A stretch of 64,000 nucleotides of DNA from a virus, in IMG/VR virus record IMGVR_UViG_3300021594_000641, positions 1-64,000 of that record; one strand, written 5' to 3'. The first letter of the stretch is position 1; each line of letters opens with the position of its first letter. Positions 9,875 through 16,624 of this stretch are shown here, one piece after another. Under the pieces are notes generated by a model. The model made no database searches and was not told where the DNA came from. It saw nothing but the letters and a program-made list of their open reading frames with translations. The position numbers and the translations under genes are program-made.

Positions 9875-10037
9875 AAATCGCTTGTCTTTTTTGAAAAAAG
9901 TCAAGTGATTGGCTTTGCTAAGAAGTTTAGTAAAGAAAAGTTAACTAACTTGTTTTTAAATTTTTGTATAAAAAATTTACAAAAATTATAGCAAATGCCA
10001 AATCGCTTGACTTTTTTAAAAAAAGTCAAGCGATTTG
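9875..10037. repeat. two copies of a palindromic element
   Basis: 9999-10037 CAAATCGCTTGACTTTTTT-A-AAAAAAGTCAAGCGATTTG is a perfect 19-bp-arm palindrome; 9875-9911 is a near-identical copy. Confidence 0.9.
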
Positions 10038-10071: not shown

Positions 10072-11325
10072 TTATTGTATTAACACGGTTATACTAAAGT
10101 CGTTAGCAGCGTTAATTAGCCTGTTAAGCATGTTAGACCAGTTCCAATCGTACTGACCTATTGTCCTTTCGGCCTTGTTTATTACAATTGTTCCGCAGTC
10201 TTCCTTAACTGCCCAGTCTACCAATCTTCTTACCCAAGCCTTGTTGTAGTCTTCTATCACCCTTTCTCGGTTTAAAGTATTCCTGTCTCGTACAGCTTGG
10301 TGCCTAAGCCAGGCTCTCCTGTGTCCCCAAGGTCTTGTCTTACTACCGCAGGCTGACACCCTCTTGTCTAAAGCTTTAGACCTTTGTTGATGCTGAGCCA
10401 GCCAGGCCAGCACAGCCTCCTGGTCTATGAGTAAAGGCTTTATTTTTTTCTCTCCTTTCATTTCAGTCTTCGCTGAAATTAAATACTGTTTATTAGTTTC
10501 TAGCTTGTTGTTTATATCTATTCTTAAAGTGTTAGGCCTTTCTGTTGTATCCTTTTTGTTTCGCTCATAGGCTATTCTTAAACAAAGCTGGTCAGGCTTT
10601 GAATCCTTTCTCTTGTAATTTATGTCCACAGACAAAAACTTGTACTCTGGGTTCTCCTGGTTCCAACCTTCTTTTATTTTCCTCCATACCGCGTTCCTCA
10701 TGCCGTCAAGGTTGCCTATTTTGAAAGCAACCTCTCCAACGTCTTTACGCCAAGACAAAGTCAAAGTCCTTTTTACGAAAGCTTTTTTCTTCAAATGAGC
10801 CGCGAACATTGTTATTGGTACTCTCTCCATCCTAGGCTCTTTTCTAACGGCCTGAAGATGCAGAAAATTTCTTTTAGCGTTATAGACCGGATCGCCGGAT
10901 TTATAAGCTTTTGTCACCTTTTCCCTGACGTCATCAAACAGAAGCGATTTGGCGTTTCCAGCGTACAAGTCTTCAAGAACTACGCTCCTGAGCTCGTACA
11001 TAGTCATTCCGGACTTTCCTCCAAACAGGGATTTTAAAGTATCACTTGTAGCTTCCTTGTTTGGCACAAGGACTATGTTAGTGTCATCTCCGTTGGAGAC
11101 GTGCCGTATAGTAGCTCCCGACAGCAGAGCTTGACCGTATATGGCTGACACTTTCTTGCATACTTTTCTGTGGTCATCTATTGAAGTTATGACTCTTCTT
11201 TTAAGAGCGCGCTCAGCCTCAATTATTTCTTCCTTTGTGGCTTTATCGTCCACTTCAGGAACTACAAAAACATCGAGGCCGAGCGTCAAAATTACCTTGT
11301 TGCTGACAACTGTCTCAGTAGCCAT
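10072..11325 (-). CDS. Cas12f/TnpB-like protein, predicted nuclease-dead and C-terminally truncated
   Basis: WED-like RKIKEG..EYK..DINY..LRIAY; RuvC-I position RIDIN (canonical GxDLG); bridge-helix region SACGSKTRPWGHRR; RERVIEDYNKAWVRRLVDWAVKEDCGTIVINK (canonical ...A.k..cGtI.mEdL, E replaced by N); ends WNWSNMLNRLINAANDFSITVLIQ, before the TSqrC Zn ribbon and RuvC-III. Confidence 0.75.
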   Translation of the reverse strand: MATETVVSNKVILTLGLDVFVVPEVDDKATKEEIIEAERALKRRVITSIDDHRKVCKKVSAIYGQALLSGATIRHVSNGDDTNIVLVPNKEATSDTLKSLFGGKSGMTMYELRSVVLEDLYAGNAKSLLFDDVREKVTKAYKSGDPVYNAKRNFLHLQAVRKEPRMERVPITMFAAHLKKKAFVKRTLTLSWRKDVGEVAFKIGNLDGMRNAVWRKIKEGWNQENPEYKFLSVDINYKRKDSKPDQLCLRIAYERNKKDTTERPNTLRIDINNKLETNKQYLISAKTEMKGEKKIKPLLIDQEAVLAWLAQHQQRSKALDKRVSACGSKTRPWGHRRAWLRHQAVRDRNTLNRERVIEDYNKAWVRRLVDWAVKEDCGTIVINKAERTIGQYDWNWSNMLNRLINAANDFSITVLIQ

Positions 11326-11335
11326 TGGAATCCTT

Positions 11336-11668
11336 TCAGTCAGTTACAGCCTTGAACCATAAGACCCCGGCTATTGCGATGGTCAAGGCTATCCATCCTT
11401 GCCACCCTATGCTCTTTTCTTGCAGCATCGCCGGTATTACTGCATATAGAGCTACGATTATTATGTCCCACGCCATCGAGAAGGCGATTATCTTATCCGT
11501 GTCGTTCATTGTCTTTACAGTGAAGACCCAGAGAAGAGAGGACATAATACTTACAGACATGCTGATAGGAAGAAAAAAGTTAGAGTCTCGAATCTCTTGT
11601 TTGTAAGTAGCCATTGAAGCAATGGAGTATATCAAAGTAACCATCAATAAACTCACTATTGCTACCAC
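11336..11668 (-). CDS. small 4-TM membrane protein (SMR/DMT-like size and topology)
   Basis: Four hydrophobic segments in 110 aa. Confidence 0.6.
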   Translation of the reverse strand: MVAIVSLLMVTLIYSIASMATYKQEIRDSNFFLPISMSVSIMSSLLWVFTVKTMNDTDKIIAFSMAWDIIIVALYAVIPAMLQEKSIGWQGWIALTIAIAGVLWFKAVTD

Positions 11669-11720
11669 AGCGCCTCCCAGCTTTTAAAAAGCAAAGGCTC
11701 GAAGCGAGCCCTTACTGATT

Positions 11721-12383: not shown

Positions 12384-12420
12384 AAAATAACGCAGGAGAG
12401 TTTAAGCTCTCCTGCGTTAT
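12384..12420 (-). terminator. hairpin terminator
   Basis: ATAACGCAGGAGAG-6nt-CTCTCCTGCGTTAT, 14-bp stem with a short U tract on the minus strand. Confidence 0.7.
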
Positions 12421-12441
12421 CATCTGGTCAGTTAAACTGAC

Positions 12442-12816
12442 TTAGTAACGGCAGCAGGCGTAGAACATGCCGTTGCTGCCTTGGGCAATACCCACTTCAC
12501 GGGGTTGCCAGCGATTGCGGAAGCAGCAGTTCATCTCTGCTGCGTACGGCGTGGATCCGCATCCAACGCCTTCATAGCCAGAATTACCACCGAAGTGGCC
12601 AATCCTTAATAGGCTGGCCATGTGGTTGGCCACGCCTTGAGCTGTTGAAAACGTTCCAGCAGCTACTGTCCTTACTGGTCCTTGGTTAGTTCCTCCGCCT
12701 TGCCCTCCGTTCCCGCGACGGTTGAACAGTCCAAAAGGACCAGCCTGCACGGTTGAGGCAACAGTGGCGACCATGCCAGCGGCTAGGACAGTCTTCAAAA
12801 TCTTACTACGCATCAT
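12442..12816 (-). CDS. secreted protein with a minimal CAP/SCP-like domain
   Basis: Signal peptide ending VQA; AQGVA..MA.....H......EGVG...G.A.G.NG.FYAC pattern. Confidence 0.6.
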   Translation of the reverse strand: MMRSKILKTVLAAGMVATVASTVQAGPFGLFNRRGNGGQGGGTNQGPVRTVAAGTFSTAQGVANHMASLLRIGHFGGNSGYEGVGCGSTPYAAEMNCCFRNRWQPREVGIAQGSNGMFYACCRY

Positions 12817-12836
12817 GCACCTCTCTTTTTTTAAAC

Positions 12837-13118
12837 TTACTTACCTGCAGGCACTGCGATGTCAGGACCGTGCTTTTGATGCACAGTCTTGACAGCTTCC
12901 TTTTTAGGTGAGGCTACTAGGCCTTCCTTGCCCTTTGTTACTGGACTGATTGATCCATCAGACCAGCGAAGAGCGGGCGTTCCGTCCTTCTGGACGATGA
13001 TCTCAACCTTCTCCGTATGACGAGCCTCTCGGCGCTCTTTAATCCTTTCAAAAACTCCGGCTGTCGCCGTGCTACCTACTACCAAAGCCGCGCTTGCTGC
13101 CAAAACGATTCTCAACAT
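12837..13118 (-). CDS. small secreted protein
   Basis: Signal peptide MLRIVLAASAALVVGSTATA. Confidence 0.65.
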   Translation of the reverse strand: MLRIVLAASAALVVGSTATAGVFERIKERREARHTEKVEIIVQKDGTPALRWSDGSISPVTKGKEGLVASPKKEAVKTVHQKHGPDIAVPAGK

Positions 13119-13140
13119 GTCAAAACCCTTTCTTAAGAAA

Positions 13141-13272
13141 ACAAAAACAGGAACTTCCTGTCTTACTGAAAATACGAGTTTCTGAGAAACCCGTCAGACC
13201 CTTAACCATTACTGGTTCGCCTCTCCTGGCGTTGCGTTTCATATTGAAACACTCAGGCTTAAGGGTAAGCCT
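13141..13272 (-). ncRNA. putative structured ncRNA sharing its 5' motif with the CRISPR leaders
   Basis: Starts AGGCUUACCCUUAAGCCU (identical 18 nt to 13845-13862); ACCCUUAA/UUAAGGGU encloses three small hairpins; then a long hairpin and a terminator ACAGGA-AGU-UCCUGU-UUUU. Confidence 0.55.
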
Positions 13273-13282
13273 TTTGATTGAT

Positions 13283-13319
13283 ACCCCTAGAGGCCTAGGT
13301 TGGCAAGGCCTCTAGGGGT
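13283..13319. terminator. 14-bp GC-rich hairpin
   Basis: ACCCCTAGAGGCCT-9nt-AGGCCTCTAGGGGT; no clear U tract on the minus strand. Confidence 0.45.
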
Positions 13320-13487
13320 TTGATGCCTTTAAGTTGCTGCAGCATCGTTCCCGGTCCTGAAACGATTCTGGTGGTTAAGTGTCCTTAAGACGGTTGGAGT
13401 TATTACCATCAGACACTTCGTATGAGGTCTCGTACCGTTCCCTCCCTACCGCAGCAAAAGCTCCGACAAAGCTTTCCTCAAAGGCCA

Positions 13488-13560
<73 letters not shown>

Positions 13561-13578
13561 TTTTATTTTTACTGCCTT

Positions 13579-13793
13579 TCTCTTATCCACGCACACGTGG
13601 GTGAGACGCCCTGGTGGACCTGGCCGACTATTCGTCCGTACCCCTTATCCACGCACGCGTGGGTGAGACGATGAGTTGGACAACTCCAACATTCCTCAAA
13701 TCCCCCTTATCCACGCACGCGTGGGTGAGACGATGACGCGGATGAAGCTTGGCTGGAAACGGTTCCCCTTATCCACGCACGCGTGGGTGAGAC
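13579..13793 (-). CRISPR. CRISPR mini-array 1: 4 repeats, 3 spacers of 33 bp
   Basis: Repeat (minus strand) GTCTCACCCACGCGTGCGTGGATAAGGGG at 13579, 13641, 13703 and 13765; 62-bp period; the degenerate repeat is at the low-coordinate end. Confidence 0.95.
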
Positions 13794-13856
13794 CCTAAAG
13801 TCTCACCAGTCCATCCGGACATTACAGTTCGTTACGAACTGTTTAGGCTTAAGGGT
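13794..13856 (-). promoter_or_regulatory. conserved structured leader / cis anti-repeat of array 1
   Basis: 63 nt; differs from the leaders of arrays 2 and 3 by one substitution and one 1-nt insertion. Confidence 0.9.
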
Positions 13857-13862
13857 AAGCCT

Positions 13863-14399
13863 CTAACGTATGAAGTTATAGTAACAAAGATATTTGTCAA
13901 GTTTGGTGCAACCTACTTTGTCGTATATTTTTTCTGCGAGTATTCCGTCAGCCGCATACGCGCTTTCATGAAAACGAAAGTTCTTCAAAATTTCCCAACG
14001 AATCATAAAGCAAGCCGTGTCTATTATGTTAACCCTTGGCTCAGTCACTGGCTTTAGTCTTATTTGTCCGTTCTTATGCAACTGACCCCAAACTATAAAG
14101 TTATTATTTTTTAAATGATCAGAGACCCCTTTCAGCCATTCTGGATGTACCACGTTGTCATCGTCCAAAAAATACACCCAGTCTGAGTCATCCGCCTGTA
14201 GATTTTCCATGACGTAGTTTCTAGTCATGTTTCCAAAATTTCCAGAATACGGCGACTTTACAATCTTGGCTTTTTCTACTATTACTTCTTTTTCTACTTT
14301 GGCGTCCAAGCCTATCCACCAAAGACAAGTCTCTGGTATAGATTTTTTTATTATCTCTAAGTTCTCAGGCCTAGAGCATGGTGTTATGATATGTATCAT
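13863..14399 (-). CDS. glycosyltransferase family 2-like (GT-A fold)
   Basis: IITPCSRP, WVYFLDDDN (DxD), IDTACF and ADG motifs. Confidence 0.75.
   Translation of the reverse strand: MIHIITPCSRPENLEIIKKSIPETCLWWIGLDAKVEKEVIVEKAKIVKSPYSGNFGNMTRNYVMENLQADDSDWVYFLDDDNVVHPEWLKGVSDHLKNNNFIVWGQLHKNGQIRLKPVTEPRVNIIDTACFMIRWEILKNFRFHESAYAADGILAEKIYDKVGCTKLDKYLCYYNFIR
13873..13900 (-). promoter_or_regulatory. candidate sigma70 promoter for array 1
   Basis: TTGACA-16nt-TAACTT inside the 3' end of the upstream gene; would start transcription just before AGAGGCTTACCC. Confidence 0.45.
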
Positions 14400-14475
14400 T
14401 TTATTTACTAGCCTAAATGAAGCTGCAGGGACTAAGCTAATTAAACTTAATCCCTGCAGTTCACGCTAGTCCATA

Positions 14476-15199: not shown

Positions 15200-16624
15200 T
15201 TAGTCAAGTTGAAGACGCCGGTTGGTCGTGACTTGCACCGCTGTGGTCAAGCCACTTCGATTGTTAATGAGGCGCATGGAATTGCGCAACTCATGCATAT
15301 AGTTCAGTTCGACAGTTTGCGTTATGCCCGCAATCGTGTCGTTAACGTGAACTACGTCCCGAGTCTCTTCTGTGCTGATTAGCAAAGAAAAGAACTCGAA
15401 GTCCATTCGTTTACGCCCTTCAGAGGCGATAAACGTAATAGGTCTAAAGTCTTCGTCAAGAAGCATGATAAACACTTCGCCTGACGGTTTTCCCATCTCA
15501 GCGAAAATTATCGACCGGTCTCCAGATTTCTTGACGTCAACATTAAGAAGCCTGCTTTCTCCGAAACTACACAAAGTCATGTCTGGCTTTGGCAATTTCT
15601 TTTTTATGAACCTAGACTTTCCTTCAAAAGTTTTGATAGGGTCTAGCTTTTTTATTTCTTCTAGAAAACTTAATCTGCTTTCTGCAAACTTAATATCCCA
15701 ATCATTATAAACATGCAGAAACTTATCAGTCGCTAGGTAAAGCTTTTTACCTGTAAAAGCAAAATCTCTTACCTCCCCTCCTTCCTCTTTGTCTAGATAA
15801 AAAGAAAGTCGGTAGCCAGACTTGCTGTTATATTTTGAGCTATACTCGTGGAAATAAATCTGGTTGTCAAACGCTACAGCCTGACTGACCCCTCCTGACT
15901 TTACACGTACTGTGTAATCAAAATTCAACATCTCTCTTTGCGTTACAGCGTAAGTAGAAGAAACTCCTTTTACGCTGTTGCCGGCTATTACTCTGTCCCT
16001 AGAGGATGTCTTAATGCTTTTAAACTCAACAACCCCGGACACTCCAGTGGTCTGGTCTGTAAAGACTGAGGCTGTTCTCAAAGTGCTGTGACCCGTTTCA
16101 GCTCCTGAAGAATCAAAGCCAATATACCTATTGTTCCAATCCCCTTCGTTGACCAGACCGGCTCCTCGAAAACATGAAGTTATAAGGGTATGGAACTCTA
16201 ATTTACTTTTTGTCCATTCTTGGACATACTCTGAAGGAAACATTACTTTTGACATGTCTTTTTTTGCCACCGACATGTTAGTTGGCGACAAAAACAACAG
16301 CACCATGTCAAAACCGTCTTCAGGGTTTGTCGGCTCAACTATAGCTATAATCTGCCGGTTGTTCTCAAAATTACTGCTTTGTATCAAAGACAGTATTTTG
16401 TTCTTTAATGCTACAAAGTAATGGATCTCGCCAGTCTCTATGTTTCCAAAATGTACCCTGTTGTCTCCACGCATAGAGACAGCGCAGTTTACTTTTGGCC
16501 ATGGTGAGAAAGCCTGGTAGCTCAACCGGGTCTTGTTTCCAGGACCAGGCAACTCTTTCCTAAAAACTAGAAGATTATCTAGCTTGGTGTTGCCCGTTTT
16601 AGTCTCAAATTTAATTGCTCTCAT
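15200..16624 (-). CDS. hypothetical beta-rich protein
   Basis: 474-aa ORF with GGAG RBS. Confidence 0.7.
   Translation of the reverse strand: MRAIKFETKTGNTKLDNLLVFRKELPGPGNKTRLSYQAFSPWPKVNCAVSMRGDNRVHFGNIETGEIHYFVALKNKILSLIQSSNFENNRQIIAIVEPTNPEDGFDMVLLFLSPTNMSVAKKDMSKVMFPSEYVQEWTKSKLEFHTLITSCFRGAGLVNEGDWNNRYIGFDSSGAETGHSTLRTASVFTDQTTGVSGVVEFKSIKTSSRDRVIAGNSVKGVSSTYAVTQREMLNFDYTVRVKSGGVSQAVAFDNQIYFHEYSSKYNSKSGYRLSFYLDKEEGGEVRDFAFTGKKLYLATDKFLHVYNDWDIKFAESRLSFLEEIKKLDPIKTFEGKSRFIKKKLPKPDMTLCSFGESRLLNVDVKKSGDRSIIFAEMGKPSGEVFIMLLDEDFRPITFIASEGRKRMDFEFFSLLISTEETRDVVHVNDTIAGITQTVELNYMHELRNSMRLINNRSGLTTAVQVTTNRRLQLD

Follow-up and report, generated by a model that had tools for sequence, protein, structure and literature searches.

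Three mini-arrays of CRISPR type are carried by the phage analysed here, and on the same strand lies a 132-nt element that opens as an array leader does and has no array of its own. The question raised by this locus is what such an orphan element does, and whether the segment at its 3′ end can be a guide. The window, which is the whole stretch of DNA that was analysed (64,000 nucleotides), is the first 64 kb of a 189,675-bp IMG/VR phage record, and the phage was found again in many freshwater and lake metagenomes. The orphan element, the arrays and the gene of a presumed effector protein are all on the minus strand (Table 1). The genome has a total of 11 repeats, each of 29 nt and with a period of 61-62 nt; the first repeat alone of each array is fused to a leader, and the leaders of arrays 2 and 3 are near-identical. 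A blastn search with positions 12400-14400 against deposited phages returned tRNAs as the only matches. An earlier note on this DNA described the element as a scaffold RNA with no spacer, and proposed that it is an ancestral omegaRNA-like scaffold, a trans-acting tracrRNA or a guide-less decoy. We conclude that the guide-RNA scaffold of the phage's non-cutting mini-Cas12f very probably has a fourth copy here, one without an array. The reading that we prefer, at a probability of roughly 0.5, goes further: the element would be a stand-alone, array-less single-guide RNA gene of the phage's putatively nuclease-dead Cas12f system, carrying one fixed 3′ segment.

Table 1. Features of the locus and of the orphan element (positions are those of the window; R1 is the covariance model described in the text)
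Feature	Position	Strand	Basis or remark
Mini-array 3	30552-30278	minus	
Mini-array 2	29146-28934	minus	
GT2 gene	14399-13863	minus	
Leader and array 1, four repeats	13862-13579	minus	
Leader of array 1, a paralogous scaffold fused to the full first repeat	13794..13862	minus	model R1, 22.6 bits
tRNA-Met	13560-13488	minus	
Structured 215-nt stretch	13487-13273	minus	
Orphan element, 132 nt	13272-13141	minus	
hp0, the self-pairing 18-mer AGGCUUA-CCCU-UAAGCCU; loop and 3′ arm, ACCCUUAA, are the anti-tail	13255..13272	minus	identity to the start of the array-1 leader
hp1, 8 bp, 3-nt loop, 2 nt past hp0	13234..13252	minus	folding; aligns to hp1 of model R1
hp2, 4 bp CGCC/GGCG, after the conserved AA linker of the family	13218..13231	minus	folding, model R1
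hp3, AACCA-GUAA-UGGUU, at the place of the repeat's internal hairpin in a normal unit	13204..13217	minus	folding
Tail UUAAGGGU, counterpart of the repeat 3′ end and second pseudoknot partner	13198..13205	minus	8-nt perfect complement of ACCCUUAA
33-nt segment in the spacer (guide) slot, begins CUGACGG	13165..13197	minus	distance from tail to last terminator
Terminator-like site 1, 9-bp hairpin then U-run, inside the guide slot	13174-13194	minus	
Terminator-like site 2, 9-bp stem then U-rich run	13134..13164 (called at 13164-13144)	minus	
ORF, 93 aa, N-terminus like a signal peptide	12837..13118	minus	begins 16 nt past the end of terminator-like site 2 (13134)
Second small ORF, 124 aa, signal-peptide-like start	12816-12442	minus	
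Three tRNAs and two further small ORFs, before the 417-aa ORF		minus	
417-aa Cas12f-family protein, presumed binding partner	10072..11325	minus	1.8 kb downstream of the orphan, same strand

With regard to the effector, Pfam returned nothing for the 417-aa ORF, and an exhaustive HMMER search with this ORF recovered 111 remote homologues. A profile of 40 homologues matches Cas12f structures with E=3.6e-24, and the same profile matches an entry deposited as 'nuclease-deactivated Cas12f' (2e-12). When the phage protein is aligned with SpCas12f1, for which the residue numbers were taken from PMC12255294, the catalytic Glu (IQIEN) faces an Asn (IVINK), meaning that the RuvC-II glutamate is absent, and the phage protein stops before RuvC-III. 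Judged by the profile and these residues, the effector appears to be Cas12f-like and catalytically incomplete (nuclease-dead). Homologous loci, to which L numbers are given below, came from looking up contigs and from scanning viral and metagenome contigs with an alignment. A single-protein effector scan of viral contigs gave no homologue, a word-indexed homologue search with the effector returned the phage's own cluster only, the A2 scan of GTDB genomes for the effector family gave no match, and the alignment of 40 effector sequences was too diverse to be used for a locus scan. Just 3′ of the effector gene there are two 36-nt palindromic copies, 92% identical, at 9875-9910 and 10000-10035, which look like bidirectional terminators.

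The 5′-end of the orphan element is shared with the array-1 leader over 18 nt, as the earlier note had stated. This sequence, AGGCTTACCCTTAAGCCT, is present exactly twice in the window (13255-13272 and 13845-13862), and 0.12 chance matches are expected even with three mismatches allowed. Just the final 12 nt of the 18-mer, ACCCTTAAGCCT, are shared by the leaders of arrays 2 and 3, and this shorter string has four copies in the 189,675-bp genome, all of them on the minus strand: one in each of the three leaders and one in the orphan. A scan of viral contigs for TTACCCTTAAGCCT gave 93 single matches, none of which extends past 16-21 nt. No sigma-70-type promoter was called upstream of 13272, and a hand-picked TTGCCA-17-TATCAA in the upstream sequence is missing the final conserved T; the orphan may therefore be just the tail of a longer transcript.

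All of the hairpins that had been named from the sequence are reproduced by folding, with hp1 formed by GUGUUUCA/UGAAACGC, hp2 by CGCC/GGCG and hp3 by AACCA/UGGUU, and the same is true of the closing helix ACCCUUA(A)/(U)UAAGGGU, which overlaps hp3 by UU. Compared with shuffled sequences, the folding z-score is -3.95 for the 132 nt and -4.25 for a 69-nt core. In addition, the 18-mer can form a hairpin by itself, with 7 bp and the loop CCCU, and this self-fold, hp0, is nearly isoenergetic with the closing helix (-26.9 versus -25.3 kcal/mol). The geometry of hp1 is the same in leader and orphan, at 8 bp with a 3-nt loop placed 2 nt after the motif. Past the 18-mer, the similarity of orphan and leader in primary sequence is not significant (local alignment score 16, shuffle mean 14.8), and because of this the description of the two as having the same order of hairpins with different sequence is right: the geometry is common to both and the alignment is at the level of shuffles. 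Comparable three-hairpin modules are found at about 7e-5 of genome positions, a frequency obtained with parameters that were picked after the fact. The loop and 3′ arm of hp2 read GGAGAGGC, which has a weak likeness to the leader anti-repeat GGUGAGAC.

That the orphan is a paralogue of the leader scaffolds, and thus part of an RNA family that is tied to the effector, is borne out by a covariance model, by loop/tail complementarity and by conservation among strains. In most of the homologous loci the array repeats are likewise 29 nt long and recur every 61 nt, and they are often divided among several mini-arrays that each have a leader. The leader start that is shared by 11 scaffolds from seven loci consists of hp0, 1-4 nt, hp1 (7-8 bp), an AA linker and hp2, and compensatory changes were detected by RNAalifold in 10 of the 12 pairs of the family's hp1 and hp2. 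Covariance model R1 was built from 11 scaffolds of seven unrelated metagenomic loci, all beside homologous dCas12f-like genes and with no phage sequence included, and was run over the window with filters off. Its top four matches in the window are leader 1, leader 2 (19.5 bits), leader 3 (15.0 bits) and 13218-13272 of the orphan (14.3 bits), and all four are full length and in register. The match to the orphan has E=0.18 for 128 kb and is just 0.6 bits higher than the best presumed false match, at 13.7 bits; the score is convincing only because the location was named beforehand and the register is exact. Over the other 126 kb of the genome R1 gave no additional scaffold, and it found scaffolds in the held-out loci L121, L122, L125, L127, L116 and L131. 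A scan of viral contigs for the array-repeat pattern found nothing.

Two elements of the earlier description are not supported. The first is the word ancestral: there is no sign that the orphan predates the leaders, and its appearance is that of a leader joined to a repeat of which the hairpin and the 3′ tail are left. The second is omegaRNA-like in the sense of family membership, since the match to the Rfam family IS605-orfB-I (RF03065) has 17.8 bits against a gathering score of 94.2 (E=0.1-0.5) and is taken as chance. At the gathering score, Rfam gave tRNAs only.

The hp0 loop covaries with the repeat tail in seven other loci of the family. The loop/tail pair of the phage is CCCUUA/UAAGGG, and its counterparts are CCCUCG/CGAGGG in L119 and L105, CCAUCA/UGAUGG in L117 and L132, CCUUCA/UGAAGG in L123, CCAUCG/CGAUGG in L130, and CCCACAU/AUGUGGG in L106. 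Of the repeat, the orphan retains just the last ~11 nt: its string UGGUUAAGGGU is identical to the repeat end UGGAUAAGGGG, or to the -U form of that end, at 9-10 of 11 positions. The 5′ half of the repeat and the matching anti-repeat of the leader are missing from the orphan, and a genome-wide search for the full 29-nt repeat, with up to 7 substitutions allowed, finds the 11 array repeats only. The orphan thus has ACCCUUAA together with a repeat-like tail, so that both partners of a pseudoknot are present. The solved guide RNAs of Cas12f and TnpB have a conserved core of stem 1, pseudoknot, stem 2 and 3′ guide (PMC12255294), and on this model the pairing of hp0 loop and repeat tail would be the pseudoknot in front of the guide.

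Strain comparisons set the orphan apart from the genes around it. Two diverged strain lineages have changes at 21/657 and 24/651 sites of the flanking ORFs (3-4%), whereas the counts are 0/369 and 2/369 for the non-coding stretch 13119-13487 (Fisher p=1e-4 and 1.4e-3 against the flanking ORFs) and 0/132 for the orphan itself. The two lineages share many differences and are therefore not independent, and the conservation of the orphan could partly reflect a recombination block. Contigs with an identical effector are all identical across the orphan. As all available phage strains are identical at the orphan, no covariation can be scored within it. Another strain has a GT2 gene that is 97.8% identical; when its L112:905-1025 is compared with window 13740-13862, the array-1 leader shows three changes, of which one disrupts a base pair in the anti-repeat/repeat helix, and spacer 1 of array 1 is a different one. 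The content of the array thus turns over between strains while the orphan stays constant.

Stand-alone units are a normal form in the dCas12f scaffold family, as is seen in L125, L105, L122 and L132. At L125:1988-2388, three tandem scaffold-tail-guide units follow the effector gene on a contig that has no ordinary array, and in the last of these units a terminator hairpin begins in or at the tail. In L105 there is one unit after the gene, with a guide that starts with CUGACGG and has no U-run terminator behind it, and a repeat-less scaffold with a terminator upstream of the gene. This upstream scaffold is directly before an ORF, and its hp0 loop can pair with the Shine-Dalgarno sequence of that ORF. 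In L122 the scaffold, which is closed and has a terminator, is encoded upstream of the gene and apart from any array, and in L132 the scaffold is joined to mini-repeats that consist of the tail only. These mini-repeats (L132:820-1560; CGGGTGATGG) are 10-11 nt long, spaced ~10-25 nt, and located on both sides of the scaffold, which suggests that the repeat can shrink to its pseudoknot-forming end. With regard to adaptation, L130:4001-6767 is on a MAG contig by a phage-type integrase, and encodes a dCas12f-like gene, cas1, an I-E-type cas2 (PF09707), a scaffold and an array; from its gene content, the locus would combine a dead type V effector with an adaptation module of its own. In L130, cas1 and the I-E-type cas2 are located between the effector gene and the array, which accounts for the resemblance of the repeats to those of type I-E.

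The earlier note held that the orphan has no spacer, and that a self-paired hairpin and a terminator are found where a spacer would be. The hairpin and U-run are there, starting 3 nt past the tail and leaving the slot largely self-paired (9 bp, -9.8 kcal/mol), but the slot is still of spacer length, with 33 nt between the tail and the last terminator, as in the spacers of the arrays. To say that there is no spacer was too strong, and was an interpretation, not an observation, because a 33-nt segment fills the guide slot. A stand-alone guide RNA needs an ending, and a terminator stem that is built on the guide can serve as one; the hairpin is thus no proof that the guide is missing. Such an ending is workable and recurs in L125. 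The self-paired slot is nonetheless unusual for a guide and fits the look of a guide-less RNA, which counts against the preferred reading. The stem core of terminator-like site 2 resembles, by eye only, the terminator at the end of array 2.

Searches for a target were made with the slot sequence and with the spacers. The slot sequence has no match elsewhere in the phage genome and none in viral contigs, and a search of the phage genome with every spacer and with the pseudo-guide, in which as many as 4 mismatches in 20 nt were allowed or shorter seeds were used, gave no self-target. Against GTDB genomes, the slot gave one 20-nt match, in an ORF of a gammaproteobacterial MAG; the match ends at 20 nt, and about one is expected by chance.

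If the orphan is a single-guide gene, its RNA would start at or just 5′ of 13272 and would fold into the 5′ module of the family (hp0, hp1, the AA linker and hp2), followed by a small hairpin that replaces the hairpin of the repeat. The hp0 loop would pair with the tail UUAAGGGU to give a pseudoknot of Cas12f/TnpB type directly before the guide. The helix between anti-repeat and repeat 5′ half that the three array leaders can form would be absent, and the RNA would for this reason be a naturally minimised single guide. The guide would presumably be the first 14-20 nt of the slot (starting CUGACGGG), one fixed sequence whose 3′ complement and U-run could also end the transcript, with the second terminator as a back-up. 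A loaded dCas12f would be expected to occupy DNA that matches the guide and to leave it uncut, and this DNA would most likely be a host promoter or gene.

After the single guide, the other readings rank in the order of guide-less regulator, trans-acting scaffold, cis-acting leader and remnant, which places both the decoy and the tracrRNA proposed by the earlier note below it. A guide-less scaffold that is used as a regulator or decoy is a possible but clearly less probable alternative: the RNA would bind dCas12f, its self-paired 3′ end could not invade DNA, and it would titrate the effector, hold an inert pool of it or time its activity during infection. The position of the hairpin and U-run, from 3 nt past the tail, is consistent with such an RNA, as are the empty target searches (phage genome, viral contigs, and GTDB above chance), the last tandem unit of L125 with its terminator hairpin at the tail, and the strong conservation of the orphan next to array spacers that vary among strains. 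However, a 14-16-nt guide fits inside the terminator stem, the slot is exactly of spacer length, and the guide of the L105 unit has the same first 7 nt without a U-run terminator after it; nor is it obvious what the phage would gain from titrating its own effector. Held with similar reserve is a broader version, in which the orphan is not a guide but a self-closing scaffold, and dCas12f acts as an RNA-binding regulator, with the RNA being either a decoy that adjusts how much free effector there is in infection or a cis leader where binding of the effector gates read-through of the two terminators into the secreted-protein operon.

We regard a trans-acting tracrRNA as unlikely. In this role the hp0 loop of the free scaffold, with a weak contribution from GGAGAGGC, would pair with those array repeats (2 to 4) that are without a cis scaffold. 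The fusion of leaders to first repeats only would leave room for such a role, and scaffolds separate from arrays are found in L122 and upstream of the L105 gene. The predicted duplex of orphan and repeat, which uses CCCUUA:UAAGGG and GAGGC:GUCUC, reaches -27.0 kcal/mol against -20.1 +/- 2.9 for shuffles, of which 1.7% are as good; the statistic is weak. However, the orphan's own tail competes in cis with a better match of 8 bp, and the anti-repeat match to the 5′ half of the repeat has 5 bp including a G-U pair, compared with 8 bp in the leaders.

The RNA evidence counts in favour of the single-guide reading and also bears on a role in cis. A contig from an RNA library (lake metatranscriptome, single study) covers 13090-13263 at a depth of 3.2, and bridges the orphan, both terminators and the start codon of the 93-aa ORF; it indicates presence in an RNA library only, with no strand, ends or level, and could be DNA carry-over. 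None of the contigs from the two metatranscriptome runs covered array 1, tRNA-Met, 13264-13487 or the effector gene, an absence that is weightless at a depth of 3-5. The contig would suit a 5′ leader that acts in cis on the operon of the two secreted proteins (93 aa and 124 aa), where the fold, with or without dCas12f, controls read-through of two terminators. A Shine-Dalgarno sequence and ATG directly after the second terminator would agree with this, and the terminator-bearing scaffold of L105, with its possible hp0 loop/Shine-Dalgarno pairing, is likewise directly before an ORF. This function is nevertheless improbable, as phage genes are packed so tightly that nearly any small RNA gene adjoins an ORF, leaky terminators are commonly read through, and no alternative anti-terminator pairing is evident.

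The least probable reading is an inactive remnant or recombination scar, in which the 18-mer is a direct repeat from insertion or duplication of the array-1/tRNA cassette and the rest is ordinary 3′-UTR hairpins and terminators: identical 18-mers do flank a 590-nt segment (leader 1, array 1, tRNA-Met and the 215 nt) and the leader-array cassette is present three times, but this would leave unexplained why the orphan has an 11-mer like the repeat tail, why an hp1-AA-hp2 module typical of the family is found at the right offset, and why there are no substitutions beside ORFs that are 3-4% diverged. From its appearance, the 590-nt segment between the two 18-mers may have entered a stand-alone guide gene, or have been duplicated from one, through recombination at the motif.

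Several known systems share features with a single-guide gene of this kind. Published dCas12f proteins use chimeric single guides in which the 3′ guide is 14-16 nt long, their stand-alone guide genes occur beside vestigial arrays, and an array-associated dCas12f cluster is thought to repress promoters (PMC13472631). Like the phage, the rpoE-dcas12f and CRISPR-array-associated dCas12f systems (Hoffmann, Wiegand et al., Nature 2026, PMC13472631) have a C-terminally truncated, RuvC-defective relative of Cas12f and a one-piece scaffold with a 3′ guide, and their guide genes are located by short or vestigial arrays, the repeats of which resemble the 3′ part of the scaffold. The system described here differs from these in that it is phage-encoded, with no sigma-E gene seen in the window, and in that it has 29-nt repeats with a 61-nt period and three scaffolds that are fused in cis to arrays; the related locus L130 has cas1 and I-E-type cas2. 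In the orphan, moreover, the guide slot is a terminator-like hairpin, and the likeness to the published scaffolds is drawn from their description.

The profile of the phage effector matches the effectors of type V-F, namely Cas12f1 (SpCas12f1, AsCas12f1, Un1Cas12f1; PMC12255294), and the guide RNAs of these enzymes, like the orphan, have stems and a pseudoknot beside a 3′ guide. Stem 5 of the Cas12f1 RNA, which is the anti-repeat/repeat helix, is peripheral (PMC12255294) and is absent in the orphan. In contrast to Cas12f1, the orphan scaffold measures ~75 nt from hp0 to tail as opposed to ~150-200 nt, it is in one piece and not a tracrRNA plus crRNA, and the phage effector is predicted to be dead. 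The stand-alone omegaRNAs of TnpB (RF03065) also have a scaffold, a pseudoknot and a 3′ guide, and these RNA genes can be away from the protein gene; the orphan differs in scoring far below the Rfam threshold, in being without transposon ends and in its association with CRISPR-type arrays. Among RNAs that are derived from repeats and are located outside of a normal array, as the orphan is, there are the crRNA-like regulatory RNAs from mini-arrays or stand-alone repeats (PMC10120712) and the phage RNA anti-CRISPRs from solitary repeat units (PMC10651486), both of which regulate or block an effector instead of giving immunity. Those RNAs mimic the whole repeat of a host system, whereas the orphan has the 3′ tail of the repeat and a full scaffold, and would be used with the phage's own effector; no partial match of the orphan to a cas promoter was found.

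Stand-alone single guides of dead Cas12f are a recent description from bacteria, and what is probably the same design is seen here in a widespread freshwater phage, beside three scaffold-fused mini-arrays. Comparison of the loci defines a compact scaffold of ~75 nt that seems to need just the last ~8-11 nt of the repeat, which bears on how CRISPR arrays collapse into fixed guide genes and may aid the design of very small guide RNAs. A single invariant guide would imply that there is one function of the host or of a competitor that the phage lineage must always control, and the target of this guide would reveal the purpose of phage-borne dCas12f systems. If the orphan has no guide, it would be an RNA regulator of a CRISPR-type effector that is encoded by the effector's own genome, and if it is a regulator or cis leader, the scaffold of a CRISPR effector would have been re-used as a regulatory RNA switch.

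Some minor observations concern the surroundings of the element and the guides of the family. The 215-nt stretch next to the orphan has a very stable fold (-88.8 kcal/mol, z=-6.15) with a 14-bp hairpin at its end, matches no Rfam family, and shows 0 and 1 differences in the two strain lineages in which the neighbouring ORFs are 3-4% diverged. As a hidden tracrRNA it was rejected, its duplex with the repeat being no better than shuffles, and it is possibly an unknown small RNA. The start region GGTTTTGACATG, together with a hydrophobic N-terminus, is common to three small ORFs (13094-13127, 16282-16315, 11659-11692), which suggests a paralogous family of small secreted proteins. Among sequences that follow a tail, 4/98 distinct ones start with YTGACG compared with 0.19 expected, for a pattern that was chosen after seeing the data; the four are window 13165-13197 (minus strand), L105:1548-1570, L119:4453-4475 and L123:4943-4966, and the longer string CUGACGG is common to the orphan slot and the L105 unit. 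YTGACG resembles a -35 box, with the orphan slot reading CTGACG-17 nt-TATTTT; some guides of the dCas12f scaffold family may copy promoters, which is a lead and not a result. Finally, the tRNA-Met is 100% identical over 75 nt (window 13487-13561) to L114:7926-8000 and L115:4675-4749, where it is directly upstream of a GT2 gene in phages that are distant relatives (GT2 protein 47% identical).
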